NCBI GenBank assembly: GCA_040752415.1
Contig: JBFMGU010000106.1
Coordinates: forward strand, 1-35,036
DNA length: 35,036 bases
Direction: 5' to 3'
Origin: Myxococcota bacterium
GTDB lineage: Bacteria > Myxococcota > JACRCW01
In this document: positions 1,037 through 30,475 of the stretch, in pieces
How the letters are laid out: every line of letters begins with the position of its first letter
Numbering within the stretch: the stretch's first letter is position 1
Program-made: the position numbers and the translations under genes
The notes under the pieces: model-generated
Databases searched by the model: none
What the model was told of the DNA's origin: nothing
Seen by the model: the letters and a program-made list of their open reading frames with translations, nothing else

Positions 1037-1684
<648 letters not shown>

Positions 1685-3338: not shown

Positions 3339-3406
3339 GCGCCGCTCCTGTCATCCCGCCCGAGGCGTCTGGAGTGCGGGCTTATGTCACGCGACGAGCA
3401 AACGGG

Positions 3407-4690: not shown

Positions 4691-4783
4691 GGCTGCCTCC
4701 GGCCAGTGGCACTTCCAGCGCCGCAGTCTGGCACCGTTGGCGCGCTGGCCCAACTGCACGGCGGGGTGTTAGCGGGTGCCCCC

Positions 4784-7497: not shown

Positions 7498-7744
7498 CTG
7501 CGGTCACGAATCGGATTGAGCGGGACTCGCGTCGCCCTGGAGTGCGGTGCGGACGCGTTCAGCCGCGTGGACGGTGCAGCACCGCTCTGGATCCGTCGAC
7601 GCCGGCGAGAGGTTGTTCCAGACACGCAGCCGTTGACGGAGGTGAACTGATCCAGAGGGGTGCTGCACCGTCCACGCGGCTGAACGTGTCCGCACCGCAC
7701 TCCAGGGCGACGCGCGTCGCGTTCAATCCGACTCGTGACCGCAG
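7498..7744. mobile_element. 247-bp palindromic MITE-like element with 96-bp terminal inverted repeats and a 3-bp TGA flanking direct repeat
   Basis: 7498-7593 versus reverse complement of 7649-7744: 6 mismatches in 96 bp; 55-bp spacer; TGA at 7495-7497 and 7745-7747; no credible coding capacity. The palindrome is certain, mobility is inferred. Confidence 0.7.
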
Positions 7745-7745
7745 T

Positions 7746-7814
7746 GAGGTGTCGTGCGGCCGCGACCTCCCCACAGCCAGGAATGGCCGCGCCACGGGGC
7801 CTGGCCGGTGTGGG
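7746..7814. terminator. Two GC-rich hairpins between convergent genes (possible terminators or RNA-stabilising stems)
   Basis: GAG-GT-GTCGTG-CGGC-CGCGAC-CTC (7746-7769); CCCACA-GCCAGG...CCTGGC-CGG-TGTGGG (7770-7814); no clear U-tract. Confidence 0.4.
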
Positions 7815-7822
7815 CTTGACGG

Positions 7823-10800
7823 TCAGTACTGCGCCTGCATGCGGATGTACGGTCCGTAGGCGTTGCGGTCCGCCTTGGCGAACTCGTCGTCGGAGACGCG
7901 GCTGAAGTTGAAGCCCACCGCCAGGCGCACGAATGGCACCGGCACGAAGCCGATCTCCGTCACCACGCCGTGGTCGAGCTGGTTGCTCGTCAGCACCGTG
8001 CGCAGCCGGTACTCGAGCGCGAGGTCGATGTCGCCGGGCCAGCGGTTGAACCAGGGCACAAACTTCTTCAGCAGGCGGAACGCGTGATAGTTCGCGCGAT
8101 TGATCCACAGCGCCGTGAACGCGTTGCCTTCCTTGAGGTCATCCGTCTTCTCGCGGCTCAGCTTGAACGCCACCTTCTCGACGAGCTGCAGACCAAACGG
8201 CAGCTCCAGGACCGGCTCGATGCTCGCCACATCCGCCGTGGTGCGCTCGAAACGACCCTCGGTCAGCATCACGGGGCGCAGCTCCAGGCGATGGCGCAGC
8301 AGGCCCAACACGCTGAACCACTCGTGGTGCACCGGGCGGTATGCCAGACCCACCGCCGCTTCCTGCAGCGACGCCTCGGTGACGCGGAGCGTGCGGTTCT
8401 GCACGTCGGCGAGGTGGAAGCGGCCGATGAACTGCAGGTCATCCGTCCAGTTCCACGCGAGGCTGTTGGCGGTGAAGAAGATGAAGCGGTCGTAACCGCC
8501 GCGGCGCTCGTCGGCGTTGTCGTAGCGGAGCTCGAAGCGGCTGCTGACCTTCAGCCACTTCCACGGGTTGAAGCCGAGCTGCACGAACATGCTGTCGCGG
8601 CTGCCGCTGCCCTGGATGGGCGCGATGGCACCGTTGGCACCGGGCGCGCCGAACGCGTAGCTGTCGGAGACCGCGGCGGGAATCACGGTGCCGTCGGGAT
8701 TCGCGGTGGGCGGACCGCTGCCCGGTGACGACGTGCTGGCCCCGATGACCTGCATGCGCTCGTACCCGAGCGAGAAGGTGAGGCCCTCCATCAATGTCCA
8801 CTGGTGCGAGGCGCCCATCACGCCACGGCTCGTCCCGCCGCCAAGTCCGGTGTGGTCCACCTGGTATTCCGCATAGGTGCGGCTGTCCGGCGAGGCCGCG
8901 CGGCTTGCGCCGATCACCGACGTGTTGAACCAGCCGCCGGAGCGCGCCTGGAAGCGCTCGGCCACGTAGATGTCGCTGTCCTCGTCGACCTTGGTGCGCA
9001 GGCCCACCGTGGTGGCGTTCTCGCCGTTCCACTTGATGGCCTCGGTGACGTTGAGCTCCAGGTTCTCCACCAGCTTGATGCGCGCGCCGCCGCTCGTCGT
9101 GAGACGGTCATTCCAACGCGGGGCCAGGCGCTGGTCCGCGAGCACTGCGCCCTCCTGGCGGAGGAACAGCACCAGCCGGTCATGGATCCTCCAATCCACC
9201 TGCCCGGCGACGACGTTGCCGAGGTGCCGCTGGTAATCCTCGTAGCGCACGCGACCGAAGGTGGCGCCGTCCTCGTTCCACGTCAGCGCGTACTCGCCGG
9301 TGAGCGTGAACGGGCCCTCCTGGTGCTGCACCTGCGTGACGGCGATCTCGCGGTGGAGCTGACGGTACTCGCCCACCTGCGGGACCGTGTTGACCTCGGA
9401 CCAGATGCCATCCCAGCGCAGCCGCAGCCGGTCGCGGCGCGTCACCTGCCAGTTCCCGTCGACGCCGTACTTCACCTGGCCCTGGTCGTAGAGCGTTCCG
9501 TCGGTGAAGAAGCCGCGGCTCACGCGCTGGGCGTACGCGCGCGCGGAGAGGTCCGTGGCCGGACGGCCAAAGACCTTGCCCAGCGCCACCTGGCCCTTGA
9601 GCTTGAAAGCCGTGCCCTGACGCTCCGCCGGATACAGGCGGTTCCCCACGACGACAGCGCCGCTGTCCACGCTCTGGCCCAGCGGTTGATAGGAGAGGCC
9701 GCCGTCGTTGCTGATCGCGGCTTCCACGGGGATGGAGCGGGAGTAGGCGGCCTCGGCCTGCACGTAGTTGTCGTCGTCCCAGAAGAGACGGGTGTGCGCG
9801 CCGGCGAGCTGGTAGCTGGGCGAGTGATTGCGACGCCCCTCGAACACGTAGCCACCACCGACGGCGAAGTGGTCCAGCACCGTCTGCTCCGCGGTACCGC
9901 CCACGGCCACCTCGCTGAAGTCCTCGGTGCCCTCGTGTTCGTAGTCGATGACGAGGAACACCGGGTTGCCCGTGGTGACGGTGGTGGGATTCTGGTTGGT
10001 GATGAGCGTGGCGTCCGCCGTCGACGGGATGGGGTCGTTCATCATGATGCGACCCTCGCGGTAACGGATGACGTAGTCCTGGCCGCGGACCTTCTGGATG
10101 CGCGCGATCTCCTGCGCGGTGACCGCGTCGCGGATCACGATGTACACGCGCTCGCTGCCTTCCACGACGTCACGGTCCTTGAGGAAGTAGAGGCTGCCAC
10201 CAGTGCCGCGCAGCTCCACGTGCGCCGGGCGACGTGGCGTATCCCCGCCGGCAACCAGCAACCGTGCCCGCGTGTGACCGAGGTCGACGCCACCGAGCGG
10301 CTTCAGCTTGACGTAGCCCTGGTCGATGGTGGCCATGCCGGCGTAGCGCGAGCGGCTGTAGCGGAAGAGGTCACCGCCCTGGAGCTGCGCGAGCGCGTTG
10401 CCGACGAAGAGCTCGTTGTTGCCGCCGCGAATCTTCGCGTAGACGGGATAGCGCGCGCGAGCCTCCTGCACCTCGACGCCGTTGTCGCCGTAGGTGGGGT
10501 AGTAGACCATGTCCTGGGCAAGCAGGTCGCGCTGTTGCACCGGGTCGTTCCAGCGGCTGGTGTCGATGTGCAGCGTGGCCTCGAAGAACGGGATGCGCCA
10601 GAAGCCCTTCCAGCGCGCCTTGGCGTACGCCGCGCCGCGTCCGTAGAGGAAGACGGGGCCGCTGCGCAGGGAGAACCCACCGGGCCCCACCACCGGCGCG
10701 ACCATGTTGTACTGGGTGTGCTCGTCAAGCTGCGCGCCCGCGGCGCCCACGCCGGTATCCGCGAAGCCCATCAGGAAGAACCCGGTGAGGTCCACGTTGT

Positions 10801-13800
10801 AACGACGCGTGAGGGTGCCCTTGTTGCCGCGCACGTCGGTGGTCTCCACGGTGACCGCGCTGTCGCCCTCATTGAGCTTGACGATGGCCACGAACTGCCC
10901 GGTCACCGGGTCCACCACCGCGGGCTGACCGTTCACGCTGACGACGTTGAGCGGATGCGTGATACCGCGCACCAGCAGCTTGTCATTGCCCAGGCGCGTC
11001 CCGTCCGGCGGCAGATCCACCACGAGACTCGCCGCGCCCACCTCGCGCGGGTTGGGCATCCACGTCGAGGGATCGGGCTCGGTGGGCGCGGGCGGCGGCG
11101 CTTCCTCGATGACCACACCCTTGCTCACCATGAACACCATCGGGATGCCACCGGGACCGGCGGGGCCGGCGGCGGTCGTCGTCGGGTCCCAGGAGACGAA
11201 GTCACCGCCCTGCGGCTGCTCAGGCGCCGAAGCGGTCAGGACGGTGCCGTGCGCGGGCGTGGGGCCCAGGATTTCGTGCAGCGTCGGCGGGGCGCCCTCG
11301 GCGGCGGGGAGGGCGGGTTTGTGCTTCACCACCACGCGGCCACCCACGGTGTCACGCCAGGAGATCACCACCTCGCCATTCCGCGTGACGAACGCGCGCG
11401 TGTTGAAGCTGGTCACGCCCGACGGCAGCGGCACGCCGTTGACCTCCACGCGCGCGGGAGCGGGGGAGGGCGGGGCCTCCACCGTCGTTGGCGGATTGGA
11501 GAAGATCAGCTCCACGCGCTTGTCGATGTTGCGGTTGCGCTTGCTGGTGGAGATGGGCTGCTCCGAGCCGCGCCCCACCGCGATGATCTCCGCCTCCGGC
11601 ACGCCATTGACGACGAGAAGGTCCTTCACCTGGTCGGCCTGGCGCTGCGTGAGGAAGAGCGCCTTCATCTTGGGGCCCTTGTCCTCGGTGTGGACCTGGA
11701 TCTGCATGGTGCCGCCGGGCTTCTTGTGTTTGGCCACGGCGGTGCGGATGGCCTCCTCACCCCTGGAGGTGATGTTCTCGCCCTTCTTGTCGAACGGGTT
11801 GGTGATGACCACGGGCTTGTCGAGGTCCACCACGGTGAAGGTCCCGTCCGGGCTGTGTTGTGTGACGCCAGCGGGGAGCTCCACGGTGAGGCGGTAGCGG
11901 AACTTGCCAGCGCGCAGGACCGCGGCCCCCCCGGCGTTGCGGCCGGACCAGTTGAAGGTGGGCGGCGGCGCGCCGTCACCGGCCTCCTCGTGGATGATGA
12001 CCTCGTCCGCCGGGAAGAGCGGCACGTCGACCGGGGCGGCGCCCTCAACGGGAGCGGGGGTATTGTCGCCAACCACGCGCAAGGTCCAGCGCAGGGTCTC
12101 CGCGGGTGCGGTGAAGCGGAACGCAACCTCGCGGTCGAGCGTGCCCGAGCCGTCGACGTTGAAAGGCGCCTGCGGACCCTCGCCGATGGTGGCACCGACG
12201 GGAATGCTGGGCGCCACCGGGATGACCTGGTCGCCGACGAGGAGCTGACCCGTGGCGATGTCGCCCTTCACCTCGACGCCGGCGCTCCCCGGGGGAGGCG
12301 GCGCGCCCTCGGGGAACGGTTCCCCGGTGTACATGCGCGTGATGACGCTGCGCTGTCCCGTGGACGACATCATGTCCACCTGGAGCATGTCGCCAACCTT
12401 CAGTGGCACATCCAGGTCAAACAGCGTTTCCTCGTCGAGAGAGGTCTTCTGGCCGTTGACGAGGACGCGCGGCTCCACCTGGTAGGCGGGCACCGGCGGG
12501 CCCATGGCCGCGGAGGTCCGCGACCGCAGCACAATGCGCCGGTTCATCGCGCGCTGCGCGCGACCCAGGTTGGGTACCGCGGGCCGCTCACCGCCGACGC
12601 CCAGCGCGTCGATCTTCGACGGGACGAAGCCCAGCGCCGCCAGCTCCGCTTTCACGCGTTCTGCACGCGCCTGGTTCGCCTCCACCACCTGCTCGGTGGC
12701 GCGGTCGTCGCCGTGGACTTCGATCTGGATGTGCGCTTCCGCGGGGTTGCCAAGCTTGGGCGCTTCCTCCTTCAGCCACTGCTGGACGCGACGGTCCATG
12801 GTGTTCGTCTCATCGAACAGCGGGCCCGTGCTCTCGTCGAGGACGGCCTCGTAGGCATTGTCCGTGGGCGCGGTGTCGCCGGCGCGGATGCCAAAGCGGC
12901 GGGGAGCGGAGACGCCCAGGTCACCGTTGGTGGCCACGGCGGCCAGCGTGACCAGGTAGACGCGCCCCGCCTTGAGGACGAGCGTTCCCTGCTCGTCGCG
13001 GCCGTCCCAGGACAGCATGGCGGCGGGCGTCTCCTGGCCTTCCAGCACGTACACTGCCTCGTGCGTCTGCTCCTCTTCCACGACGAGACGCCAGCCGCTC
13101 AGCGGCAGACTGGTGTGCACGCGCGGGTGGAACCAGAGCTTCATGCCCAGCCCGTTGACGTCGTCAAACGCCATCAGGTTGGGGCCGGGGCCCTGGCCGA
13201 TGATGGGGTCGTCGTTACCGAAAGACACGCCCAGGTCCGCACGCACCGACTCCTGCCGCGCGCCCAGGAGCGACACATTGCGTTGACTCGCGACGCCGCG
13301 AATGTGGATGCGGTCCGGCATGGACGCGGGCGGCGGCAGCGCGGGCAGCGGGCGGTAGCTGTCCTCGTTGATCGTGACGTCGGGATTCGTCGCAGTGTTC
13401 TCCACGCAGCGCACGCCGAACGAGAACCGCGTGGGCAGACCGCGCGTGACGTAGAAGAGTTGGCGCTCCAGCGTGGTCATCTCCGCGCCGGCCGGCAGCG
13501 TGTCGTCGTCGATCTTGGCCAGGTGCGAGCCGGGGCGGACGCCGCTGAAGTGGAACCGGCCCGCGAGGTCCGTCTCCGCGTAATAGCCGGTATCGAGATA
13601 CACGCGGGCGCCGTAGACGCCTTCCTCCGTCGGGTCCTGCCAGCCGTCGCCGTTCTGGTCGCAGAAGACCTTTCCGAGGACCACCCCGTCGTCGAAGATG
13701 GGCTCGGGCCGGATGTCCACGCTGGCTTCCGCCTCATTGGACACGTTCACCTGGCCCGCGGCGGCACGCAGCACTGCGCGGTTGACCTGCTCACCCATTT

Positions 13801-16800
13801 TCACCGACGGACCCACCACGAGCTGGTAGCGGATCTCCGTCTCGGTCTTGGCGAGCAGGTCGAACGGCCCGAAGGTGAGGAGGCGGTTTCCCTGCGGGTC
13901 CGGCGTGGGCAGCTTCTCCCGACGGACGCGACCGCTGGAGTCACGCACCAGGCGGTCAACGCGCGCGCTGCCGGGAAGGAGCTTGAAGCCCGGCGGAATG
14001 GCGTCGGCGAGCTCCACACCACCCATGTTCTCCACCGTCATGTCCCGCGACGCCGTGTTCGTGGCGCGCACGGTGTACGTGATGATGTCGCCGACGCTGG
14101 CGGTGCGCTTGTTGGCCAGCTTCTGCAGGCGCACGTGTGAGAGCAGCGGGTCCACGGGGATGTGGTTGTTGAAGACGGGGCGGTCCGGCGTGAGGTCAAA
14201 GCGCAGGTAGTAACGGCGGTCACCATCGAGCTGAGGCGTGGCGCTGTCGACGACGTTTCCACCCGGGAACGTCCGCGCGAACGAGCCCATGGGATGCGCC
14301 ACGTTGTCATCGTTGGCGGGCGGGATGATGGTGGAGGGCCAGATCGACGTCGGAGACGGGCCGGTCAGCCCAACGCGGTACTTGCCAGGCCGCGGATCGA
14401 AACGGTAGCGCCCGTCGGTGCCGGTCACCTGGTTCTGCTGACCCTCGGGCAGGTCCGCCTCCGCCACCGGGACGTCGTTGTTCGGGTCGTCATCCTCGTT
14501 GTCGACGTAGAGGATCGCGGTCACGCCGGCCAGCGGCCGTCCGTCGCGGGAGTCATAGACCACACCGCTGGGGTCCACGCCCAGGTCCTGGACGCGACGT
14601 TCACCGCCGGTCAGCGCAGCCACCACGTGCTCCGCGAACTGCGCGCCGCCCTGGGAGACGATGCGCGCGCGATAGTCACCGGGAGCCACCGAGCTGAAGT
14701 GGAAGCGCCCGCTCTCGTCGGTGAGCGCGGTCATGATCGGCGTGGCGCGCGGGCCGGCATCCAGCGGCACCAACAGCACCTGGTAGCCGACGAGAGGCTT
14801 GTCCTTCCCGCCGTCGAGCTTCTTGTTGCGCTTGCCCACGTCCTCGAACACGGAGCCGCGCAGGTCGGCCGTGCCGGGGATGGCGCCAATCACGAGAACG
14901 GCGGGCCCCACGCTGGTGGTGGTCCCATCCTCGAGGACGACCACCGCGCCGTTGCGCAGCTCCGTACCGGCGTCCGCATTCCTGGAGACGAGCGCACGGA
15001 ACCGGATGGTCAACGAGCCGCCGGGCGGGATGACGGGTCTCACGTCGGGCTTCAGCGTGATCTGCGTGGGATCACCGCTGGCTTGGAAGCTGCCGGACGG
15101 CTCCAGCGAGGTCTCGACGAACGTCAGGCGCGAATCGAGCGCGTCGAGGAACCCATCCGGCGACCGCAAGCGCGCCTCGGTGGCACCGCGGTTCGGGATC
15201 TGAACCATGTACAGCAGCTCGTCACCCGGCTCCGCGAGGCCGCCGTCCAGGTCCACGACGGTGATGGATGCGCCGCTGACGTCCGCACCGCTGCCCGCAC
15301 GGGTCAGCACGGTGGGCTGATCGCCGGGGCTGGCCGGGTCGGCGTCGGAGTGCATGTCCGGCGCTCCGGTACGCTTGATCTCCGCCTGGAACTGCGCGGT
15401 GTTCACGGAGTTGAGCCGCACGCGGACGGTGGCGATCGTGGCGTCACCGCTCTCCAGGACGGGGAGGCGGATCCACCAGCCGCCGTCCTCGATGCCGCCC
15501 GCGTCGTTGTCCGCGGCCGCGGAGATGGGCGCGCCATTGAGCGTCAGCGTCTGCGGATAGATGTCCACGCCGTTGGGGATGGGCACGCGGATGAGCGCGT
15601 CGTGGGCGGGCAGTGAGCCGGGGTTCTCGAGGACCAGGCGCAGCGTGGAGGTTCCATCCGCGTTGGCAATGGACGGGTCTGCCTGCAGCCACACGCCGAG
15701 GATCGCACCGCCGCCGACGACGGCCTGCGTGGGATCACCGAGGATCTCGGGCGTGCGCGGGTCGTCGCTGGGAACCGGCGTGGTCTCCTCGGACTCGAGC
15801 CACCCTTGTGCGCTGATGCGGTAGCCGCGCGGGAGCGTGAGGAGGGCGCGCACCTGGAACGTGGCCACAATCGCCGCACGCGGTTCCAGGCCGCCAAGCA
15901 CTTCCCCAGCGGCGAGCGCGGAGAGGTTGCCGACGTCGTTGCGCTGCGCGCCGCCCACCCGCGTGGTGCCCGCGACGTACTCGGTACCCGCGGGGATGGG
16001 CATGGTGGCGCGCACGGTGTGGGCCGCGGCGGAGCCGTCATTGACGACGGTGAGGCGGAAGTTCAGCAGGTCACCCGGCTCCACCTCACCGCTGTTGACG
16101 TCGATCATCTCCAGTGACGACGCGCTCAGCCGCGGAATGGACGTGACCTCGATTGTGGCCGGGCCCATGGTGAACCCACCCGGCAGCTCCACCGAGCGCG
16201 CCGTGGCCACCTGGCGGATGTTGGTGCCGTTGGGCAGCGGCGAGCGGACCTGGGCGCGGAACCGCAACGTGACGACGTCGCCCGGTCGCATCAGTGCGAG
16301 CTGCGTGTTGTTGGACGCGTCCCAGGTCAGCTCGGCGCCGTTGCGCGTGCCGCCGTCCTCGGGAATGGGGTCGGTGAGGGAGGCATCCACCGGCGCGCTG
16401 ACCGAGACGCCGCGCGTCACCGACGTGCCGCTGTTGCGGACGGTGATGGTGAACCACAGCGTGTCGCCGGGCTCCACCGTGGCCGGCGGGTTGTTGATGA
16501 CGATGGTGGACGTGGTGAAGGACGGCTCGCCCTGCAACGTGAAGACCGTGGCGTCAACAGGGGCGGTGCGGGGGTCGTCGCTCTGGAGCGGGCCGCCCAA
16601 GCCCACGGCGGTCAGCGAGGCGCGGTTGGTGTACGACGTGTCGCCGGCGGCAAGCGGGTCCACGCGGCCGTCCACCCACAGCTCGACGCGCCCATTGGGC
16701 TCAATGGACGCGAGCGCCGCGGTGGTGTTGAGATCCCAGCGTGCCGTGCCATTCGTGAGCACGCCTTGCTGACCCAGCGTGACGTCGAGGAACCCCGCCG

Positions 16801-19800
16801 GCAGCGGGTCGGTGACGACCACCTGGAGCGCGGGCGCGCTGCCGCTGTTGGTGATGACCAGCGTGTAGCGGAAGCGGTCGCCGGGGATGGTGGGCGCGCC
16901 ATTGTTGTCGTCGAACGACTTGGTGAAGGCGAGGCGCGGCGCGGCCACCGTCATGATGGTGGCGTCGTCCACGGTGCCAGTGCCCGGGTCGTCGGAGGGG
17001 ACGCCGGCGGCGTTCTCCAGCGAGCGCACGGTGGCCTGGTTGGGAATGCGCGTCCCGTCGGCGGTGCCGGCCTTCACGCGGGCGCGGATGGTCAGCTCCA
17101 CGGGGGGATCGGTGGGCCGCAGTCGCGTCAGGGCCGGCGTGGTTTCCTGCGTCCAGCTCAGCAGGTTCCCCGACGCGGTTCCGCCCTGACCAACCTCCAC
17201 GACCTCCAGCGCGGCATCCAGCTCGTCGGTGACGGTGACGGTGCGCGCGGCGGTATTGCCGGTGTTGGAGATGGTCAGCCGGTACAGGATGACGTCGCCA
17301 GGAACGAGCGTGCCCAGGTTCTCGTCCTGCGCGGTCTTGGTGAAGCTGGAGAGGTCCACCACGGCGTTGACCGTGATCGTCGTGGGATCATTGGCGGCGC
17401 CCGTGGACGGGTCATCCGACGCCACCTCGGCCACGTCCTGCGCGCTCGCAAAGGCCTGGTTGTGGAGCTGCCGGCCGTTCTCCACCAGGTCCAGCACTTG
17501 CAGCACCAGCTCTACGCGGGCCTCACCGCCGAACGGCGCCACGTCGGGAAGGGTCCAGTTCACCGTCCGCGTGGCGGAGTCAAACACGCCGCCGCCCGTG
17601 GCGGAGATGAACGTCATGCCCTCCGGGATCTCGTCGCGCATGCGCACGGTCGTGGCGGTGGCGGAGCCCGGGTTGGTGACCGAGAAGACGTAGGTGACGT
17701 CGGTGAGCGGCGGCACCACGCGCGGGTTGCCGTCTGGGATGGACTTGGTGACGGCGAGGCGCGGCGTGGCCACCACCCGGAAGGTCGTGGCGTCGTTGGC
17801 CGCGGGTGTGCTCGGGTCGTCGGAGAGGACGGCGGTGATGCCCTGCCCGGCCACGCTGGCCTGGTTGGAGACCGTGGTCCCATTCCCCACCGTCGGGAGC
17901 ACACGCGCCGTGAACGTCACCGTCGTGGGCGTGTTGCCCGGTGAGACGCTGGCGAGGTTCCACGTCAGCAGGTTCCCACTCTGCGTGCCGCCGTTGCCCA
18001 CGCTCACCACCTCGAGCCGCGCGGTGTCGACGACGTCGGTGATGGCCACCTGGCGCGCGTTGGCGGTGCCGTTGTTGGTGAACGAGACCGTGTAGGTGAC
18101 CTGGTCGCCAGGCTCCACGTTGCCACCGTTGGCGTCGGTGAACGTCTTCTGCACGTTGCTGATGGTGGGCGTGGAGCGGACCGTCACGCGCGTCTGGTCG
18201 CCGCCGGTGGCGGTGGTGGGGTCGTCGGTGAGGAAGGGGGTGCCGGTGCGGTTGTTGAGGAAGAGCTGCGCCTGGTTGCCCACGGTGATGCCGTCGTCGA
18301 GCGGGACGGCCAGGCGGCCGGAGATGGTCACGGTGATGGTGTTGCCGGGTGACACCGACGCGAGCCCGGGGACCTGCGCGCTGGTCCAGCTCACCAGGTT
18401 CCCGCTGATGACCCCGCCGTTGTCCGCCGACGTGGTGATCCACTCCGCGGGCAGCGGATCCTCGATGACCACGTTGCGCGCGATGGCATTGCCGCGGTTG
18501 GTGACCGTGATGCGGTACTGCAGCGGGTCGCCGGGGCGGGCGGTGGTGATGGGATTTCCGCTGCCGTCGAGGATCTGCTTGGTGGAGGCGGAGAGGTCGG
18601 CGGCGCTCGTGATGCGGAGCGTGGTGGCGTCGCCCGCGGTGGCGGTGTTGGGGTCGTCGGACTGGACCGCGGGGACACCGTCAGCGGTGACGCGCGCCTG
18701 GTTGCTGATCTGCGTACCGTCGTCGAGCGGGCTGCTCAGCGTGGCGGTGAAGCTGAGGTCGACCGCGGTGTCGACCGCGAGCGTCTGCAGCCCGGCCACA
18801 CCCGTTCCATCCCAGCGGATTCCGCCGCCGCCCACATTGCCGCCCGCGGAGGGCACCAGGTTCAAGAGCCGGCCATCCACCGGGTCGGTCACGACGACGT
18901 TGGTGGCGTTCATGCTGCCGGTGTTCTGGACGCGGATGTCGTAGCGGATGTTGTCGCCGGGAGCGAAGGGCGCGCCGTTGAGATCGGTGACGGTCTTGGT
19001 CACCACCAGCGTGGGCGAGCTGGTCACGGTGAAGGTGGTGGCGTCGCCGGGCGTGGCGGTGTCGGGGTTGTCGGAATCCACGGCGGAGAGCCCGTCGGCC
19101 TGGATGCTGGCGCGGTTGCTGATGACGGTGCCGTTGTTCAGCGGCCGGCGCACCGTCGCCAGGATGCGCACGGAGCCCGAGCGACCCGCCGGCATCGACG
19201 CCAGCGACGCCTCGGTGTTGCGGTCATACGTCACGGTGGCGCCCGCGAGCTGGCCGTTGGTACCGGGGTCCACGCTGACCAGGTTGGCGTCGAGCGTGTC
19301 GCGGATGACGACGTTGGTGGCCGTCTCCGTGCCGGAGTTGGTGTAGGCGAGGTCGTAGGCAATGCGGTCGCCGGGGCGGAACACCGTCGAGCCGGGGTTG
19401 GTGACGTTGCTGAGCCGCTTGGTGATGGACAACCGCGGACGGGAACGGATGGTGATGTTGGTGGCGTCGTTGGGCGTGCCCGTCGTCGGGTCGTCGGACT
19501 GCACGCTGATGCCGCCGTCGGCGCGCGCGGTGGCGCGGTTGGAGATGACGGTTCCGTCGGCCAGCGGCGAGCTCACCGTCGCCGTGAACACCACCGTGAC
19601 CGGCGGGCCGGGCACCACGCTGAGGAGCGAGGGGACGCCGGGGTTCTGGTAGGTCACGAGCTGACCCGCCACGATGCCACCGTTCTGCGCCTGAATGCTG
19701 ATGAGCCGCGCATCCACCGGGTCCTCGATGACGACGTTCCGCGCCGGCGCGTCACCGGTGTTGGTGAGCACCAGCGTGTAGGTCACAACGTCACCCGGCA

Positions 19801-22800
19801 GCGTGTCTCCCCCGTTGTTGTCGCCGACGAGCTTGGTGAGCGTGAGCACCGCTGCGCTGGTGACGGCGAAGTTCGTGGGATTCGCCGTGCCGGCGACGCT
19901 GGGATCGTCGGAGAGCACGGGGCTCGTCAGCTCGGTGGCGGTGGTGGAGGACTGGTTGGAGACCGTCAGACCGTTGTCGAGCGGCGTCTTGAGGCGTGCG
20001 TCCAGGGTCAGCGTGACGTCGTTGGCGGCGCCGGTGTTGATGTTGCCCAGGTTCCAGCGCACCGCGCCGCCCGAGAGCGTGCCGCCATTGGACGCGGAGA
20101 CGAAGTCCAGCGCAGAGGGCAGCGTGTCCAGCACCGCCACCGTCGAGGCCACGCCGTCGCCACGGTTGCGCAGCGTCATGGTGTACCGGATGTTGTCGCC
20201 GGGGCGGAACTGGCCGCCGTTGAGGTCCTGCACGGTCTTCTCGACGGTGAGCAGCGGCGTGGCGGTGACGGTCAGCGCCGTGGGCGGCGAGGAAGCCAGC
20301 GGGGACGTCTCCGCGGAGTCCACCGTGGCGGTGTTGTTGATGGTGGCGCCGTTGGTGACCCCGGCGTTCACGGTGGCGTCGAAAGTCAGCGTGGTGGAGG
20401 TCCCCTGCGCCAGCGACGCAAGCGCGCCGGTGGTGCTGGAGCTCCACGTGATGTTGCCGGCCGCGTTGCTCCCATTCTGCCCCACCGACGTGATGGTGAG
20501 CCGGTTGTCCACCGCGTCGGTGACGACGACGCTGGTGGCGGCGCGGTTGCCGTTGTTGATGACGGTGATGGTGTAGCGGACCGCGTCGCCCGGACGCGTG
20601 GGGGTTCCCCCCAGGTCCTGCACGGTCTTGGTCACCGCGAGCACCGGCATGGCGGTCACGGTGAACGATGGCGACGTCACGGTCACTGCGCGCGTGGTGT
20701 CCTGCTGCGGCGTGAGACGCGCGGAGTTCTGGATGGTGGAGCCATTGGCGGCGTTGTTGGCCACGTTGGTGACGATGACGATGTCCTGGAACGCGCCTTG
20801 AGCCAGCGTGATGGTGCCGCTCATGCGACCGGTCCCATTGGCGCCACCGGCCTGGCAACTCACCCCCGTCACCGCCGAGCCCAGCGTGCATCCGTTCACA
20901 CCCACGGGCAGGTCATCCAGGATGTCCACCGTGATGCTGCGGTTGCCGTTGTTCGCCACGCGCACCGACCAGCGCACCTCCTCGCCCGGACCTGCGTTCC
21001 CGTCGGCGGGCATGAGCAGCGTCTTGCTGGAGGTGCTGAGGTCGATGCGGTTCCGCGTGATCACCGTCGTGGGATCGGCGGCGGCTGTCGTGGTGGGGTC
21101 GTCGCTGAAGAGCGTGGTGTTGGTCCCGGGCTGGGTGACCTGGGCCTGGTTGGACACGGAGGTGTTGTCGGCGGTGCCTTCCCGGATGCGCGCCGTGAAC
21201 GTCACCACCACGCTGCCGGAGGCCGGCACGGAAATGCTGCTGACCTGCAGGGTTCCCGTCGTCACGTCGCTGTCCAGCACCGAGCCGTTGGGCCGCTGCG
21301 TCACGGCGATGCCCTGGAGCTGGGCGGGCAGCACGTCGCGGAGCGTGACGCCGCTGACCGGCGAGCTGCCGTTGCCGAACACCGTGATGGTGTACGTCAG
21401 CGTGTCGCCGGGTGCTGCGCCGCCGCCCGTGGCACCGGACACCGTCTTCTCCATGCGGTTCACGGTGGTGGCGCGCACGGTCACATTGGCGGAAACCGTG
21501 ACCGGGTCCACCTCGTCGGAATCCACGGTTCCGGTGTTCTGGATGACCGTCCCGTCGGCGGTCCCCACCTTCACGCGTGCCTGGAAGCTCACCTCGCAGA
21601 CGGGACGCGTGCCGCCCGGCGTGAGCTGGCCGATGTTCAGGCCGCTCGTCGAGAACAGCGGGCTTGCTCCACCCACGTCGGGCGCGTTCACTCCGCAGCT
21701 CGTGGTGGTGGAGTTGGGGATGTAGTCCAGCAGCGTGGTGGGCAGCGTGTCCTTGACGACGACGTTGTTGGCGTTGGCGGTGCCGTCATTGGTGGCGCGG
21801 ATGGTGAACGTGATGATGTCGCCGGGCGAAGCCTGCGTGACGTTGGCGCTCTTGAACGTTCCCGCGTTGAAGAGGCGCGGCGCATTGGAGTCCAGCGCCA
21901 CGAACACGTACCCGAGGAGGAACAGCTCGCCGCCGCCCAGCTCGCCGCCGGCAATTCCGTCGCCACTGCCAATGCGGAAGTCCATGTACGTGTCGGAGGC
22001 GCTGATGACCCGCTCCACGCCGCCCTGGCCGATGCTGATGGTGTCGACGTCGACGCCAGTGGTGGACCCGCCGTTCTTGTTGCTGCTGTTGAACAGGTTG
22101 CCCGCGGGGTTGATCTGGGTGCCGTCGGTGACGCGCCACAAGCTGGGATGGCTCGCGGTGGACAGCTCCATGAAGTCCGCGTTGGCGGCGAGGTGGGGCG
22201 GGGCGCCAAGCTGGGCGTCGCCCTCCAGCGCAAAGAAGCTGAGCTCCGCGCGCGCGGCGTTGCTGGCGTTGAACCCGGTGATGCGGAAGGTCTGGCTGAT
22301 GCCGCTGCCGCCACCCTGAACGCCGAAATCCTCGTCGGCGTAGAAGAAACCGTCCCACAGGACCGCGTCGCGTGTCTTGGTTGCCGTTGGCGAGCGCCAC
22401 GCCACCACGAGCGACCAGCCCGCGAACTTGGCCTGGCAGGCCGGATCGCTGAAGTCGCACGCGCCCGGCTGGTCGGGGCGGTTGGGGTCCGGGACGCCGG
22501 GAGACGCCTCCACGTTGCCGACCGTGTAGGAGCCACCCGCGCCACCCGCCGGCAACGCCGCGAGGATGTTGGTCACGTCGCGACGGCAGTAATAGAAGAA
22601 CACCGGGAGCGTGGGCGTGCTGGTGACGACGCACCGGTTGGCGGAGAGGTTGCAGTTGGCACCGTCTTCCGGCGCGCTGCAGGTATCCACGTCGACGGTG
22701 CGGGTGACGCCGTCGGGGCGGGTGAGGGTGACCACGCGGTCGTCCGTGCCAAAGTCCGTGGAGCCGGACCAGAACAGGAACGCGCCGGTCACCACGCCGT

Positions 22801-23071
22801 CGGCGGGGAAGGAGTTGATCGACGCGGTCGACGACGGGAGCAGCAGGTAGTTCACCTGCGTGTTGCTCTCCATCAGGGTGGCGCCCGTGGTGTCGGCGGA
22901 GCCGGTGACCCGCCAGCTTCGCAGCAGCTCCGGACTGAAGCCGCCCGTGGATGCGTTGACGTCGACAGTCAGCGCGAGCACCAACGCAACAGGCAGCAGT
23001 CCACGTGCAGTGAGACCGGAGTGACCCATCCGCGGATTCCCGACGGGCCCGCCTGGCCCAATGGACAACAC
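7823..23071 (-). CDS. Giant (~5,080 aa) surface protein: Cys-containing tip domain, 18 DUF11-type Ig repeats, SdrD-B-like domains, two FlgD-Ig-like/OmpA-like modules, C-terminal putative beta-barrel
   Basis: Uninterrupted 15.2-kb ORF; signal-like LLPVALVLALTVDVNA; repeated PGD-x-x-x-Y-x-I-x-x-x-N-x-G; GKVFCDQNGDGWQD; OmpA-like VHGDD...RAERV...NRRIV; ends YIRMQAQY; alternative start ATG 23029. Confidence 0.92.
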   Translation of the reverse strand: MLSIGPGGPVGNPRMGHSGLTARGLLPVALVLALTVDVNASTGGFSPELLRSWRVTGSADTTGATLMESNTQVNYLLLPSSTASINSFPADGVVTGAFLFWSGSTDFGTDDRVVTLTRPDGVTRTVDVDTCSAPEDGANCNLSANRCVVTSTPTLPVFFYYCRRDVTNILAALPAGGAGGSYTVGNVEASPGVPDPNRPDQPGACDFSDPACQAKFAGWSLVVAWRSPTATKTRDAVLWDGFFYADEDFGVQGGGSGISQTFRITGFNASNAARAELSFFALEGDAQLGAPPHLAANADFMELSTASHPSLWRVTDGTQINPAGNLFNSSNKNGGSTTGVDVDTISIGQGGVERVISASDTYMDFRIGSGDGIAGGELGGGELFLLGYVFVALDSNAPRLFNAGTFKSANVTQASPGDIITFTIRATNDGTANANNVVVKDTLPTTLLDYIPNSTTTSCGVNAPDVGGASPLFSTSGLNIGQLTPGGTRPVCEVSFQARVKVGTADGTVIQNTGTVDSDEVDPVTVSANVTVRATTVNRMEKTVSGATGGGAAPGDTLTYTITVFGNGSSPVSGVTLRDVLPAQLQGIAVTQRPNGSVLDSDVTTGTLQVSSISVPASGSVVVTFTARIREGTADNTSVSNQAQVTQPGTNTTLFSDDPTTTAAADPTTVITRNRIDLSTSSKTLLMPADGNAGPGEEVRWSVRVANNGNRSITVDILDDLPVGVNGCTLGSAVTGVSCQAGGANGTGRMSGTITLAQGAFQDIVIVTNVANNAANGSTIQNSARLTPQQDTTRAVTVTSPSFTVTAMPVLAVTKTVQDLGGTPTRPGDAVRYTITVINNGNRAATSVVVTDAVDNRLTITSVGQNGSNAAGNITWSSSTTGALASLAQGTSTTLTFDATVNAGVTNGATINNTATVDSAETSPLASSPPTALTVTATPLLTVEKTVQDLNGGQFRPGDNIRYTMTLRNRGDGVASTVAVLDTLPSALDFVSASNGGTLSGGAVRWNLGNINTGAANDVTLTLDARLKTPLDNGLTVSNQSSTTATELTSPVLSDDPSVAGTANPTNFAVTSAAVLTLTKLVGDNNGGDTLPGDVVTYTLVLTNTGDAPARNVVIEDPVDARLISIQAQNGGIVAGQLVTYQNPGVPSLLSVVPGPPVTVVFTATVSSPLADGTVISNRATARADGGISVQSDDPTTGTPNDATNITIRSRPRLSITKRLSNVTNPGSTVFRPGDRIAYDLAYTNSGTETATNVVIRDTLDANLVSVDPGTNGQLAGATVTYDRNTEASLASMPAGRSGSVRILATVRRPLNNGTVISNRASIQADGLSAVDSDNPDTATPGDATTFTVTSSPTLVVTKTVTDLNGAPFAPGDNIRYDIRVQNTGSMNATNVVVTDPVDGRLLNLVPSAGGNVGGGGIRWDGTGVAGLQTLAVDTAVDLSFTATLSSPLDDGTQISNQARVTADGVPAVQSDDPNTATAGDATTLRITSAADLSASTKQILDGSGNPITTARPGDPLQYRITVTNRGNAIARNVVIEDPLPAEWITTSADNGGVISGNLVSWTSAQVPGLASVSPGNTITVTISGRLAVPLDDGITVGNQAQLFLNNRTGTPFLTDDPTTATGGDQTRVTVRSTPTISNVQKTFTDANGGNVEPGDQVTYTVSFTNNGTANARQVAITDVVDTARLEVVSVGNGGTQSGNLLTWNLASVSPGNTPTTVTFTARVLPTVGNGTTVSNQASVAGQGITAVLSDDPSTPAANDATTFRVVATPRLAVTKSIPDGNPRVVPPLTDVTYVFSVTNPGSATATTVRMRDEIPEGMTFISATGGGVFDSATRTVNWTLPDVAPFGGEARVELVLQVLDLVENGRQLHNQAFASAQDVAEVASDDPSTGAANDPTTITVNAVVDLSSFTKTAQDENLGTLVPGDVILYRLTISNTGNTAARTVTVTDELDAALEVVEVGQGGTASGNLLSWTQETTPALTRLRPTDPPVELTIRARVKAGTADGTRIPNQATVRSLENAAGVPSDDPGTGTVDDATIMTVAAPRLAFTKSFDDNNGAPTIPGDRFRYTLVITNSGSAPALQVVVTDPLPAGFLDVTLGQQGVLTNGTARWDLNTTAALASIEPNGRVELWVDGRVDPLAAGDTSYTNRASLTAVGLGGPLQSDDPRTAPVDATVFTLQGEPSFTTSTIVINNPPATVEPGDTLWFTITVRNSGTSVTRGVSVSAPVDASLTDPIPEDGGTRNGAELTWDASNNTQLALMRPGDVVTLRFRAQVRSPLPNGTNIRQVATARSVELPGGFTMGPATIEVTSIPRLSASSLEMIDVNSGEVEPGDLLNFRLTVVNDGSAAAHTVRATMPIPAGTEYVAGTTRVGGAQRNDVGNLSALAAGEVLGGLEPRAAIVATFQVRALLTLPRGYRISAQGWLESEETTPVPSDDPRTPEILGDPTQAVVGGGAILGVWLQADPSIANADGTSTLRLVLENPGSLPAHDALIRVPIPNGVDIYPQTLTLNGAPISAAADNDAGGIEDGGWWIRLPVLESGDATIATVRVRLNSVNTAQFQAEIKRTGAPDMHSDADPASPGDQPTVLTRAGSGADVSGASITVVDLDGGLAEPGDELLYMVQIPNRGATEARLRSPDGFLDALDSRLTFVETSLEPSGSFQASGDPTQITLKPDVRPVIPPGGSLTIRFRALVSRNADAGTELRNGAVVVLEDGTTTSVGPAVLVIGAIPGTADLRGSVFEDVGKRNKKLDGGKDKPLVGYQVLLVPLDAGPRATPIMTALTDESGRFHFSSVAPGDYRARIVSQGGAQFAEHVVAALTGGERRVQDLGVDPSGVVYDSRDGRPLAGVTAILYVDNEDDDPNNDVPVAEADLPEGQQNQVTGTDGRYRFDPRPGKYRVGLTGPSPTSIWPSTIIPPANDDNVAHPMGSFARTFPGGNVVDSATPQLDGDRRYYLRFDLTPDRPVFNNHIPVDPLLSHVRLQKLANKRTASVGDIITYTVRATNTASRDMTVENMGGVELADAIPPGFKLLPGSARVDRLVRDSSGRVRREKLPTPDPQGNRLLTFGPFDLLAKTETEIRYQLVVGPSVKMGEQVNRAVLRAAAGQVNVSNEAEASVDIRPEPIFDDGVVLGKVFCDQNGDGWQDPTEEGVYGARVYLDTGYYAETDLAGRFHFSGVRPGSHLAKIDDDTLPAGAEMTTLERQLFYVTRGLPTRFSFGVRCVENTATNPDVTINEDSYRPLPALPPPASMPDRIHIRGVASQRNVSLLGARQESVRADLGVSFGNDDPIIGQGPGPNLMAFDDVNGLGMKLWFHPRVHTSLPLSGWRLVVEEEQTHEAVYVLEGQETPAAMLSWDGRDEQGTLVLKAGRVYLVTLAAVATNGDLGVSAPRRFGIRAGDTAPTDNAYEAVLDESTGPLFDETNTMDRRVQQWLKEEAPKLGNPAEAHIQIEVHGDDRATEQVVEANQARAERVKAELAALGFVPSKIDALGVGGERPAVPNLGRAQRAMNRRIVLRSRTSAAMGPPVPAYQVEPRVLVNGQKTSLDEETLFDLDVPLKVGDMLQVDMMSSTGQRSVITRMYTGEPFPEGAPPPPGSAGVEVKGDIATGQLLVGDQVIPVAPSIPVGATIGEGPQAPFNVDGSGTLDREVAFRFTAPAETLRWTLRVVGDNTPAPVEGAAPVDVPLFPADEVIIHEEAGDGAPPPTFNWSGRNAGGAAVLRAGKFRYRLTVELPAGVTQHSPDGTFTVVDLDKPVVITNPFDKKGENITSRGEEAIRTAVAKHKKPGGTMQIQVHTEDKGPKMKALFLTQRQADQVKDLLVVNGVPEAEIIAVGRGSEQPISTSKRNRNIDKRVELIFSNPPTTVEAPPSPAPARVEVNGVPLPSGVTSFNTRAFVTRNGEVVISWRDTVGGRVVVKHKPALPAAEGAPPTLHEILGPTPAHGTVLTASAPEQPQGGDFVSWDPTTTAAGPAGPGGIPMVFMVSKGVVIEEAPPPAPTEPDPSTWMPNPREVGAASLVVDLPPDGTRLGNDKLLVRGITHPLNVVSVNGQPAVVDPVTGQFVAIVKLNEGDSAVTVETTDVRGNKGTLTRRYNVDLTGFFLMGFADTGVGAAGAQLDEHTQYNMVAPVVGPGGFSLRSGPVFLYGRGAAYAKARWKGFWRIPFFEATLHIDTSRWNDPVQQRDLLAQDMVYYPTYGDNGVEVQEARARYPVYAKIRGGNNELFVGNALAQLQGGDLFRYSRSRYAGMATIDQGYVKLKPLGGVDLGHTRARLLVAGGDTPRRPAHVELRGTGGSLYFLKDRDVVEGSERVYIVIRDAVTAQEIARIQKVRGQDYVIRYREGRIMMNDPIPSTADATLITNQNPTTVTTGNPVFLVIDYEHEGTEDFSEVAVGGTAEQTVLDHFAVGGGYVFEGRRNHSPSYQLAGAHTRLFWDDDNYVQAEAAYSRSIPVEAAISNDGGLSYQPLGQSVDSGAVVVGNRLYPAERQGTAFKLKGQVALGKVFGRPATDLSARAYAQRVSRGFFTDGTLYDQGQVKYGVDGNWQVTRRDRLRLRWDGIWSEVNTVPQVGEYRQLHREIAVTQVQHQEGPFTLTGEYALTWNEDGATFGRVRYEDYQRHLGNVVAGQVDWRIHDRLVLFLRQEGAVLADQRLAPRWNDRLTTSGGARIKLVENLELNVTEAIKWNGENATTVGLRTKVDEDSDIYVAERFQARSGGWFNTSVIGASRAASPDSRTYAEYQVDHTGLGGGTSRGVMGASHQWTLMEGLTFSLGYERMQVIGASTSSPGSGPPTANPDGTVIPAAVSDSYAFGAPGANGAIAPIQGSGSRDSMFVQLGFNPWKWLKVSSRFELRYDNADERRGGYDRFIFFTANSLAWNWTDDLQFIGRFHLADVQNRTLRVTEASLQEAAVGLAYRPVHHEWFSVLGLLRHRLELRPVMLTEGRFERTTADVASIEPVLELPFGLQLVEKVAFKLSREKTDDLKEGNAFTALWINRANYHAFRLLKKFVPWFNRWPGDIDLALEYRLRTVLTSNQLDHGVVTEIGFVPVPFVRLAVGFNFSRVSDDEFAKADRNAYGPYIRMQAQY
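14890..21870 (-). repeat. Array of 17 tandem ~130-140-aa DUF11-type repeats inside the giant CDS (an 18th at ~13705-14140)
   Basis: Counted by eye from PGD..Y/F...N.G motifs; repeats are diverged at the DNA level; boundaries approximate. Confidence 0.8.
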
Positions 23072-23143: not shown

Positions 23144-23596
23144 TCAGTCGTCGGTTGCCAGGTCCGGCACCTTCAGGAAGGGAATCTCCTCCTCCTCAAG
23201 CTCACGCTCCTCCTGCTCGGTTGCCGTTCCACGGATGAGGCGGGGCGCGGCCTCCTCGCGGTGGATCCGTCGGGCCTCCTCGGCAAAGCGTGCGCCCACG
23301 TCTTCGGCATTGGCCCGCACATGCGCCGCCACCATCCCCATCACCTCGCGCACCTGGGCGGGCGTGAGCTGTGGCGGGGCTCCAGCGGGCTCCGGGGTGG
23401 GATACACGTTGGAATCCGCCCGGCCCTCGGCACTGCGCTTGATGGCGGAGCCGGTCACCAGCTTGCGGACCTGACGGGAACCGCACGAGGGACACTCGAG
23501 CTGACCGGCCGCCTCCTGCTGGCGGAACGCGTCCAGATCCTGAAACCACCCCTCAAATCGGTGGCCCTGGGCACAGTCCAAGTCGTAGATGACCAT
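23144..23596 (-). CDS. DUF1178 family protein (zinc-ribbon-like)
   Basis: MVIYDLDC..GHRFEGWF, L.CPSCGS..VRK, EDVGARFAEEARRIH, R.IRG.AT..E..EL.EE are characteristic of DUF1178. Confidence 0.9.
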   Translation of the reverse strand: MVIYDLDCAQGHRFEGWFQDLDAFRQQEAAGQLECPSCGSRQVRKLVTGSAIKRSAEGRADSNVYPTPEPAGAPPQLTPAQVREVMGMVAAHVRANAEDVGARFAEEARRIHREEAAPRLIRGTATEQEERELEEEEIPFLKVPDLATDD

Positions 23597-25191: not shown

Positions 25192-25219
25192 TTGACAGCG
25201 GGACCGCCGTGAATATTGT
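25192..25219 (+). promoter_or_regulatory. Candidate sigma70 promoter of the ABC operon
   Basis: TTGACA-N16-TATTGT about 30 nt upstream of ATG 25251, with a T-rich tract upstream. Confidence 0.55.
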
Positions 25220-25250
25220 GCCCGCCTTCTTTGAGGTCGAGGGCTGCGAG

Positions 25251-26216: not shown

Positions 26217-26276
26217 AGCCATCCGTCACGACGACGGGAACAACTTTCAAACCCATCCACCCTCGTGGAGGGCACC

Positions 26277-26996: not shown

Positions 26997-27005
26997 GGTG
27001 ACGCC

Positions 27006-28643: not shown

Positions 28644-28658
28644 CACTCGAGGTTTGCC

Positions 28659-30410: not shown

Positions 30411-30475
30411 GCGGACGCCAATGGGGGCGGGGCGCGGGGAAATGCCCGCGGGGTGCCGGTTGTTCAGACTGGCCA

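Follow-up and report, generated by a model that had tools for sequence, protein, structure and literature searches.

The 35,036-nucleotide stretch of Myxococcota DNA analysed here (contig JBFMGU010000106.1; hereafter the window) carries on its reverse strand a giant open reading frame (ORF) whose product combines a stalk unit (residues 1 to ~3,225) with an anchor unit (residues ~3,300-5,082), two units that are encoded by coupled genes in relatives. As judged from its structural model, the C-terminus of the anchor unit is very probably an outer-membrane (OM) β-barrel, roughly three times as long as those of type V systems. The feature is genuine, widespread and unstudied, and a plausible mechanism can be proposed for it, in which the giant protein would be a single-chain, barrel-anchored fibrillar adhesin whose stalk exits via its own barrel, a reading that we regard as evenly balanced between right and wrong. 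Neither the barrel nor the complete architecture was found described in the literature searched, a body of texts that covered few subscription journals and excluded supplements. The features of the gene, with positions in the window, are as follows.

7823-23071 (-), giant ORF, 5,082 residues plus stop as listed, with a third-position G+C (GC3) of 0.91
23029 (-), ATG of Met15, the likely true start; the database copy has 5,068 residues
22952-23029 (-), residues 15-40, Sec-type signal peptide (sequence reading and hydrophobicity window scan)
21875-22951 (-), residues 41-399, all-β head domain of the jelly-roll type, outside any Pfam family, in which Cys pairs are conserved
14867-21874 (-), residues 400-2735, 17 DUF11/CLIPPER repeats (Pfam, NCBIfam, repeat alignment)
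14120-14866 (-), residues 2736-2984, SdrD_B/CarboxypepD_reg-type region (Pfam)
13712-14119 (-), residues 2985-3120, 18th DUF11-like repeat (Pfam, repeat alignment)
13397-13711 (-), residues 3121-3225, second SdrD_B-like domain (Pfam, best stretch 3135-3200)
13172-13396 (-), residues 3226-3300, Pro-rich junction with 13% Pro (composition; end point of split stalks)
12824-13171 (-), residues 3301-3416, β-rich module without a family, conserved in the homologue consensus
12527-12823 (-), residues 3417-3515, OmpA-like domain 1 (NCBIfam Pal_lipo; PDB sequence matches)
11795-12526 (-), residues 3516-3759, inter-OmpA region, a second β-rich module without a family
11504-11794 (-), residues 3760-3856, OmpA-like domain 2 (Pfam OmpA, E 1e-14; PDB 5wtp)
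11027-11503 (-), residues 3857-4015, Pro-rich linker and small β segment (sequence windows; no Pfam match)
10793-11026 (-), residues 4016-4093, Ig-like domain of Glucodextran_B type (Pfam, E 2.1e-9)
7826-10783 (-), residues 4097-5082, predicted C-terminal β-barrel domain (AlphaFold2, fold matches, family)
10022-10213 (-), residues 4287-4350, conserved core (~64 residues) of the barrel insert (conservation profile, DSSP)

The GC3 of the giant ORF is the mark of genuine genes in this window, the G+C content of which is 66-70%, and the gene is present as a single copy in its own genome. Met15 is followed by a signal sequence (R-GLLPVALVLALTV-DVNA|S) that is probably cleaved after VNA, and this is the sole helix-like hydrophobic segment of the protein besides one strand of the barrel (Kyte-Doolittle window above 1.6). 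Database names for the protein are generic, namely 'DUF11 domain-containing protein' and 'uncharacterized repeat protein'.

The protein was scanned against Pfam and NCBIfam as three overlapping pieces, the DUF11 pieces overlapping by 100 residues. Pfam DUF11 was matched in 10 and 7 stretches (E 1.4e-95 and 2.7e-68), accompanied by DUF7507, DUF7619 and DUF7927, along with two stretches of SdrD_B and one of CarboxypepD_reg (residues 2756-2823), and NCBIfam contributed TIGR01451, TIGR04226 ('isopeptide-forming fimbrial') and a second Pal-like stretch at residues 3422-3515. Alignment of the repeats resolves 17 DUF11 units followed, beyond the first SdrD_B-type region, by one more. A sequence-only reading of this DNA had set out the order signal peptide, stalk, two OmpA-like domains, Ig-like domain and amphipathic strands, and this order is confirmed by Pfam, NCBIfam and the repeat alignment; the 'FlgD-Ig-like' label that it placed beside the OmpA-like domains has to be dropped, as Pfam FlgD_ig has no match at residues 3230-3420 or 3515-3760, even at E<=10.

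The DUF11 domain has been renamed CLIPPER, with a CnaA-like crystal structure bearing a K715-N806 isopeptide bond and a catalytic D748, and the same source counts it among the stalk domains of fibrillar adhesins at the cell surface (10.1101/2025.04.25.650565). A search of PDB sequences with one DUF11 repeat of the giant protein gave no significant match. In the repeat alignment, a Lys/Asp/Asn triad occupies single matching columns in 11 of the 18 repeats, with a spacing similar to that of K715, D748 and N806, and from these columns it is predicted that isopeptide bonds lock many repeats of the stalk. All 12 Cys residues of the protein lie in the stalk (residues 131-3222) as closely spaced pairs or clusters. 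The composition of the stalk is likewise its own, with 18-21% Thr plus Ser compared to 11-12% in the anchor and barrel, and ~6% Lys plus Arg compared to 9.5-11%.

The head has no Pfam match at E<=10 and no significant match among PDB sequences. Fold matches to its AlphaFold2 model (pLDDT 80.5, pTM 0.86) are all weak and fall on double jelly rolls, PNGase F and carbohydrate-binding modules (CBMs), and the Atlas look-alikes of the head bear the names 'Cell surface protein' or DUF3344. The head is found at the N-terminus of 37 of the 201 homologues sampled, nearly all of which are 4,000-5,300 residues long, with two of ~2,500.

In the anchor unit, Pfam OmpA (PF00691) matches residues 3760-3847 at 55.1 bits over a cut-off of 27.2, and the Pal/YiaD models of NCBIfam match two OmpA-like stretches, both below their equivalog cut-offs. 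Among PDB sequences, the first OmpA-like domain matches OmpA-family lipoproteins and Pal (E 7.4e-7) and the second matches 5wtp (E 1.6e-9). Domains of this kind bind peptidoglycan in the periplasm, their conserved Asp and Arg contacting the peptide stem, and the first domain keeps Asp and Arg at the peptidoglycan-site columns (aligned to 5lkw/4b5c). In Pfam searches at E<=10, residues 3301-3416 returned only a sub-threshold CBM_4_9 (E 0.089), the inter-OmpA region only a sub-threshold DUF5666, and the head, insert and linker regions nothing useful. The Ig-like domain directly precedes the barrel and occupies the same position in most homologues.

The last 986 residues have no Pfam or NCBIfam match, and a profile of the barrel family found no significant match among PDB sequences. 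AlphaFold2, run with 35 homologues, predicts an almost purely β structure (mean pLDDT 79.2, pTM 0.72), the DSSP string of which contains 42 strands of at least seven residues outside an insert at domain residues 193-272, or 41 if residues 114-120 and 123-135 are taken as one kinked strand; hence, the predicted barrel is said here to have about 40 strands. The lengths of its loops alternate in a manner that fits both termini being periplasmic, an argument that depends on the predicted strand count. Such barrels are inserted by the β-barrel assembly machinery (BAM) with both ends in the periplasm, and BAM recognises an aromatic C-terminus of this kind; the chain does end in the Tyr claimed for it (...IRMQAQY). 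Foldseek against the PDB returned only OM barrels among the matches listed, with SlpA/SDBC at the top (E 1.5e-7) followed by Cir, SprA, MtrB and LptD, all at a TM-score of ~0.2. On this modelling, the fold class of the domain is clear and no solved barrel is a close match to it. The sequence-only reading had spoken of a very large barrel of some 980 residues, of which the barrel stands, the domain being nearly all β and matched only by OM barrels, and the 'very large' draws on one AlphaFold2 model.

Covariation was tested by mutual information on 172 aligned barrels (effective number of sequences 123), a measure in which sequence proximity inflates the scores of adjacent pairs. It supports a meander of sequential hairpins, as 29 of the 41 consecutive strand pairs exceed the 99th percentile of non-adjacent pairs, and the pairs lying across long loops (3-4, 8-9, 13-14 and 29-30) covary with z of 3.4-6.2. 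The 36-strand SprA is called the largest known barrel in a 2026 preprint (10.64898/2026.03.07.710327), and a single barrel of ~40 strands, if the predicted strands do form one barrel, would exceed it.

Between strands 8 and 9 lies a β-rich insert of ~80 residues, the core of which is the best conserved stretch of the barrel family (RGTGGSLYFL...EGSE.V...DY.I.Y..GR) and the region still detected in distant paralogues. This insert may be a plug or gate. It would also be the plug of an uptake or transport machine, a very improbable reading in which the barrel is a large gated channel and the stalk captures polymer or prey material. TonB-dependent transporters combine a TonB box and an N-terminal plug domain with a barrel of 22 strands. 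Pfam and NCBIfam hold no TonB box, Plug or TonB_dep_Rec match to the protein, the fold matches are generic to all barrels, and the name of TonB-dependent transporter is only an automatic label on distant members.

A HMMER search of 1.84 billion cluster representatives returned 1,308 matches to the barrel at E<=0.001 (clusters at 50% identity), 927 of which remain at 1e-10 and 337 at 1e-30. Named records with close relatives are metagenome-assembled genomes of Myxococcota (Myxococcales, Polyangia, Nannocystaceae, Haliangium) and five of Omnitrophota. Within the phylum, matches at E<=1e-10 occur in 114 of 201 sampled genomes, a tally that includes one genome flagged as unpublished (G195) with one weak match, and in 96 of 160 high-quality genomes. 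In the census of 201 homologues, the barrel alignment reaches the end of the query in 146, and in 140 of these it does so no more than 10 residues from the C-terminus; these 140 proteins end in Tyr in 115 cases, Phe in 21, Trp in two, and Leu and Met in one each, giving 138 with an aromatic end. OmpA was sought by phmmer with the giant protein's own domains, which gives an underestimate, and was detected in 85 homologues, N-terminal of the barrel in every one.

These homologues fall into two size classes of ~1.1-2.5 thousand and 4-5.3 thousand residues, and the long ones are collinear with the giant protein over its full length. Pfam searches of 18 members reveal a common core, in which a variable stalk is followed by one or two OmpA domains (detected in 12 of the 18), an Ig-like domain and the barrel. 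The stalk is built of DUF11, Big_1/Invasin_D3, SdrD_B or CarboxypepD_reg domains in these 18 members and ranges, across relatives, from 0 to 16 DUF11 repeats, or is made of Big_1 or SdrD_B. Two seemingly 'stand-alone' barrels of ~850 residues (P0015 and P0032) were rejected as truncated gene calls, because they are without a signal peptide and match internal parts of longer proteins.

The division of the protein into two units is best seen in a sister subfamily of OmpA-plus-barrel proteins of 1,690-1,720 residues (P0038 type), which hhalign aligns to the giant protein with a probability of 100 (E 6.8e-68) along 905 columns spanning the Ig-like domain and the whole barrel. A metagenome scan yielded at least 80 loci of this type, of which 44 of those listed have at least 5.3 kb of upstream sequence. 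In 42 of the 44, the directly upstream ORF lies on the same strand, measures 1,154 to more than 3,330 residues and contains 4-13 DUF11-like stretches, and the remaining two have stalk and anchor fused in one ORF; the suggestion that related parts may be separate genes in other bacteria is thereby borne out. The stalk ORF ends within ~100 bp of the start of the anchor gene or overlaps it (by ATGA in locus L077), and the stalk and anchor proteins of split loci each bear their own signal peptide. The L077 stalk presents DUF11, CarboxypepD_reg and two SdrD_B domains in the order of the giant protein, and the L077 anchor has three OmpA domains. Five split stalks are collinear with the giant protein and end at its residues 3,219-3,281, so that the break falls at the Pro-rich junction that directly follows the second SdrD_B domain.

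The split stalks of L077 (9507-9926 (+)) and 15 other loci end in a conserved segment of ~95 residues (ASIHRVVGLD...VLRLSYVAD...WRLG), which has no Pfam match and no recognisable copy in the fused protein, and which may dock the stalk onto the anchor protein. A further arrangement is found at L123 (6554-19628 (+)), where an ORF of 3,097 residues (head, 13 DUF11, two OmpA) overlaps a barrel ORF of 1,333 residues by 215 nt out of frame; this break, between OmpA and barrel, may reflect a frameshift, mark a pseudogene or be another type of split.

Distant paralogues of the barrel are also accompanied by Ig-like proteins. Genomes of one family (f11; 9-10 Mb) encode a barrel paralogue with 29% identity over 421 residues, and among distant paralogues with readable ORFs, small Big_1/Invasin_D3 or DUF11/SpaA-type proteins stand beside the barrel gene at 7 of 9 loci. 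A Big_1/Invasin_D3 protein is directly upstream at L026, L028, L031, L033, L034 and L035, which represent four families with G+C contents of 39 to 74%, and no clear Ig-like neighbour was found at L032 or L037; L029 and L036 (76-77% G+C) were left out of this survey for their ambiguous overlapping ORFs. Four loci from 9-10 Mb genomes of the same phylum share an operon (L026 2-9000 (-); L034 5256-15049 (+); L035 5476-14847 (-); L037 4115-15574 (+)) composed of a FecR-plus-Ig and/or PD40 β-propeller protein, a Big_1/Invasin_D3 protein of ~650 residues (not in L037), a distant barrel member of ~1,200-1,400 residues and a protein of 700-1,075 residues without a family. At L030 (4155-14602 (+)), two small DUF11 proteins (267 and 410 residues) precede a barrel protein of 2,086 residues (CarboxypepD_reg/DUF11/OmpA/barrel) and a 749-residue SpaA_4-plus-DUF11 protein, an order that looks like a fibre of separate pilin-like subunits around the same type of barrel.

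In the mechanism that we propose, the giant protein would be exported by Sec, after which its last 986 residues would fold into the very large OM barrel of ~40 strands. The Ig-like domain and the two OmpA-like domains would remain periplasmic and hold the barrel to peptidoglycan, and the N-terminal ~3,200 residues, comprised of the jelly-roll head, 18 CLIPPER/DUF11 repeats and SdrD_B-type domains, would form a stiff stalk projecting from the cell surface. This stalk would emerge at the surface by way of the barrel lumen of the same chain, with the Pro-rich junction (~3,226-3,300) passing or entering the pore and the conserved mid-barrel insert (4,287-4,350) acting as a plug or clamp on the chain, a role suggested only by analogy with usher plugs. 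A barrel of this size could pass folded, isopeptide-locked domains, unlike a 12-strand pore. The unit occurs in fused and two-gene versions, as in the case of types Va and Vb.

The base of the stalk should be periplasmic in both versions, because the fusion joins the C-terminus of the stalk to the periplasmic N-terminus of the anchor. From this it would follow that the stalk either stays wholly periplasmic or leaves the cell with its base retained. The former reading, in which the barrel and OmpA-like domains form an OM-to-wall tether, comparable to SlpA/OmpM or to an OmpA of reversed order, and the whole stalk lies along the wall as a structural layer with nothing crossing the membrane, has the simplest topology, since all domains before the first strand are then on the same side as OmpA. 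The top Foldseek match is itself a tether, SlpA of Deinococcus, and both proteins of the split form are known only as Sec-exported. The last ~95 residues of the split stalk look like a small α/β domain of periplasmic type belonging to no family, and in short members nothing but SdrD_B-type domains precedes OmpA. A further point for such a fibre is OmcB of Chlamydia, a protein with DUF11 that has long been placed on the periplasmic face. It is nonetheless unlikely, as ~20 serial β-sandwich domains are estimated to be several times longer than the width of the periplasm, relatives differ in the length and composition of their stalks in the way that surface adhesins typically do, cell surfaces are where the head and CLIPPER domains are otherwise reported, and the size of the barrel would be left without a reason. 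We favour exit through the protein's own barrel, given that its stalk is composed of domains known from surface adhesins, greatly exceeds the width of the periplasm and shows the variability of adhesins, that the gene has no linkage to another export system, and that nothing else accounts for a barrel of this size.

Several observations weigh against exit through the barrel, and some of them against the closed barrel itself. That the strands form one closed barrel is a prediction only. Alignments to solved chains cover at most 460 of the 986 residues, both among the 48,161 chains to which the model was compared by VIA-align and among the top 1000 Foldseek chains, and porins of 16-18 strands align across the N/C seam with a root-mean-square deviation of 4.5-7 Å, a hint that the shape may be non-circular or bilobed. 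In the covariation test, no signal links the first strand to the last (z -0.9) or points to a two-barrel alternative (pair 8-30, z 2.4; pair 9-29, z -0.3), the test being underpowered in both respects. The topology is demanding, as the stalk must double back, from the outside through the pore to the periplasmic OmpA domains and then to strand 1, and the junction shows neither a helix nor an obvious linker that could form a plug. To fill a lumen ~40 strands wide, more would be needed than an insert of 80 residues. The second OmpA-like domain has Glu and Gln at two of the peptidoglycan-site columns (aligned to 5wtp) and may be degenerate at this site. The three or four repeats nearest the anchor and membrane (residues 2186-2735; 14867-16516 (-)) lack the full Lys/Asp/Asn triad, which may allow the stalk to unfold there. 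Lastly, members of ~2,000 residues in the same phylum have neither a long stalk nor an upstream stalk gene at all four such loci checked, and therefore the barrel exists without a giant passenger.

This last point, together with the junction that shows no threading element, favours yet another reading, in which the fibre reaches the surface by a different route, such as BAM, the translocation and assembly module (TAM) or an unlinked factor, for example through the open seam of the nascent barrel, and the finished barrel is an anchor only, perhaps also a channel. Type V passengers are now thought to use a hybrid of BamA and their own barrel, which counts for such a route. The linkage of stalk and barrel, fused or adjacent and often overlapping at all 44 loci listed, fits an anchor and a translocator alike. 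No candidate helper is conserved nearby, and a pure anchor would not need ~40 strands; this route is, in our estimation, quite unlikely, and exit through the protein's own barrel is retained as the working model.

The nearest described relatives by layout are the CLIPPER/OmpA fibrillar adhesins, B9T28_05395 among them, which share with the giant protein an N-terminal binding head, a tandem CLIPPER stalk with Lys-Asp-Asn triads and an OmpA-like domain towards the C-terminus. Two sources take the OmpA-like domain itself to be the C-terminal anchor of Gram-negative fibrillar adhesins, and their main texts contain neither 'barrel' nor 'outer membrane' (PMC10952558, PMC12617251). Unlike the OmpA-anchored adhesins so described, and comparing by description only, the giant protein continues for 986 further residues that constitute a barrel family without a Pfam model.

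Type V systems resemble the giant protein as self-contained chains of signal peptide, passenger and C-terminal barrel, and in being fused or split as Va and Vb. Type V barrels have 12-16 strands compared to the ~40 predicted here, and no sequence or Pfam relation to them was found; unlike them, the giant protein has no helical linker and no POTRA domain. Periplasmic peptidoglycan-binding domains are known in type Ve (LysM), type Vc (SLH, OmpA) and the helper TpgA (10.64898/2026.01.22.700529), where they lie at the other end of the barrel, whereas those of the giant protein lie between passenger and barrel. Its layout of signal peptide, N-terminal passenger and C-terminal barrel with an aromatic end is that of type Va, in which a barrel of 12 strands and ~300 residues follows a pore-filling helix; there is no match to an Autotransporter family in Pfam or NCBIfam and an Ig-like domain, not a helix, before the barrel of the giant protein. 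In type Ve the barrel is N-terminal and the passenger C-terminal, the reverse of the present order, and the Big_1/Invasin_D3 domains occur only in relatives, not in the giant protein. The claim that the protein fits neither type Va nor type Ve is upheld by this order of passenger, peptidoglycan-binding domains and barrel. For type Vb, which pairs a 16-strand Omp85-type transporter bearing POTRA domains with a TpsA protein bearing a TPS domain, no POTRA, Bac_surface_Ag or TPS match was found in the fused protein or in the split pair of L077.

Giant adhesins of type I secretion systems (T1SS), such as LapA and MpIBP, are threaded through an OM pore and held by a periplasmic retention module. They employ a separate TolC-like channel, an ABC exporter and a C-terminal secretion signal, whereas the giant protein has no T1SS genes adjacent, has no RTX match in Pfam and ends in the predicted barrel; the nearby ABC genes are GldA/F/G-like, lie on the other strand and are not conserved with the giant gene. 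More broadly, Pfam and NCBIfam scans of the protein found no domain of T1SS, type IX secretion or type V. Tethers of the SlpA/OmpM type share a wall-binding domain and a large C-terminal barrel, and the giant protein differs from SlpA in its TM-scores of ~0.2, OmpA in place of SLH, the lack of a coiled coil and an N-terminal fibre of 3,200 residues. Large barrels usually sheathe another polypeptide, as for MtrA and LptE. A further known system of comparison is that of chaperone-usher pili (FimD/PapC), in which a usher barrel of 24 strands has a plug in mid-barrel and a gene for a periplasmic chaperone goes with it.

In the genomic surroundings, genuine neighbours were told from shadow ORFs by their GC3. 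Two genes without Pfam matches, at 4706-6220 (+) (GC3 0.90) and 6217-7497 (+) (0.88), converge on the end of the giant gene, and a scan of 7400-7900 for promoters and terminators found nothing. Upstream, a DUF1178 gene (23144-23596 (-)) lies ~115 nt from Met15, and the genes past it diverge. The flanking ORFs of the window are not conserved beside any of 24 related genome loci, downstream genes being common only to one clade of four of the loci compared. No secretion-system genes stand beside the giant gene and no accessory neighbour is conserved at the 24 loci, in keeping with the 'self-contained' unit first proposed.

Further along the window, a four-gene operon at 25209-30410 (+) encodes an ABC ATPase, an ABC-2 permease, an ABC_transp_aux (GldG-like) protein and a DUF4340 protein; it resembles the GldA/F/G set of gliding bacteria and is not conserved beside relatives of the giant gene. 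An ORF of 1,409 residues on the opposite strand (26247-30476 (-)) was discarded as a shadow of these genes, with a GC3 of 0.66 compared to 0.93-0.94. Other genes of the window, ordinary in their housekeeping or regulatory functions, encode a CarD-family regulator (184-744 (-)), a thioredoxin-rhodanese fusion (1037-1684 (-)), HrcA (1856-2917 (+)) and a HisKA_3 sensor kinase (3407-4759 (-)).

The known routes by which Gram-negative bacteria display megadalton fibrillar adhesins are few, namely type I, type V and type IX secretion and the ushers. In the family delineated here, fibres of the CLIPPER type are tied, by fusion or adjacency, to a very large barrel for which there is neither a family model nor a solved relative. 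A broader claim, possible though somewhat doubtful, is that these proteins constitute a widespread and hitherto undescribed OM system for secretion and anchoring, a 'giant-barrel autotransporter' that comes fused or split, in which a barrel of ~40 strands, the largest known, would pass folded, isopeptide-locked Ig-like domains and OmpA-like domains would bolt the whole to the wall. If the barrel is indeed both exit and anchor, it would be a new entry on the short list of OM export machines and would extend the known size range of β-barrels; if the stalk is periplasmic instead, the giant protein would represent a new kind of envelope scaffold.

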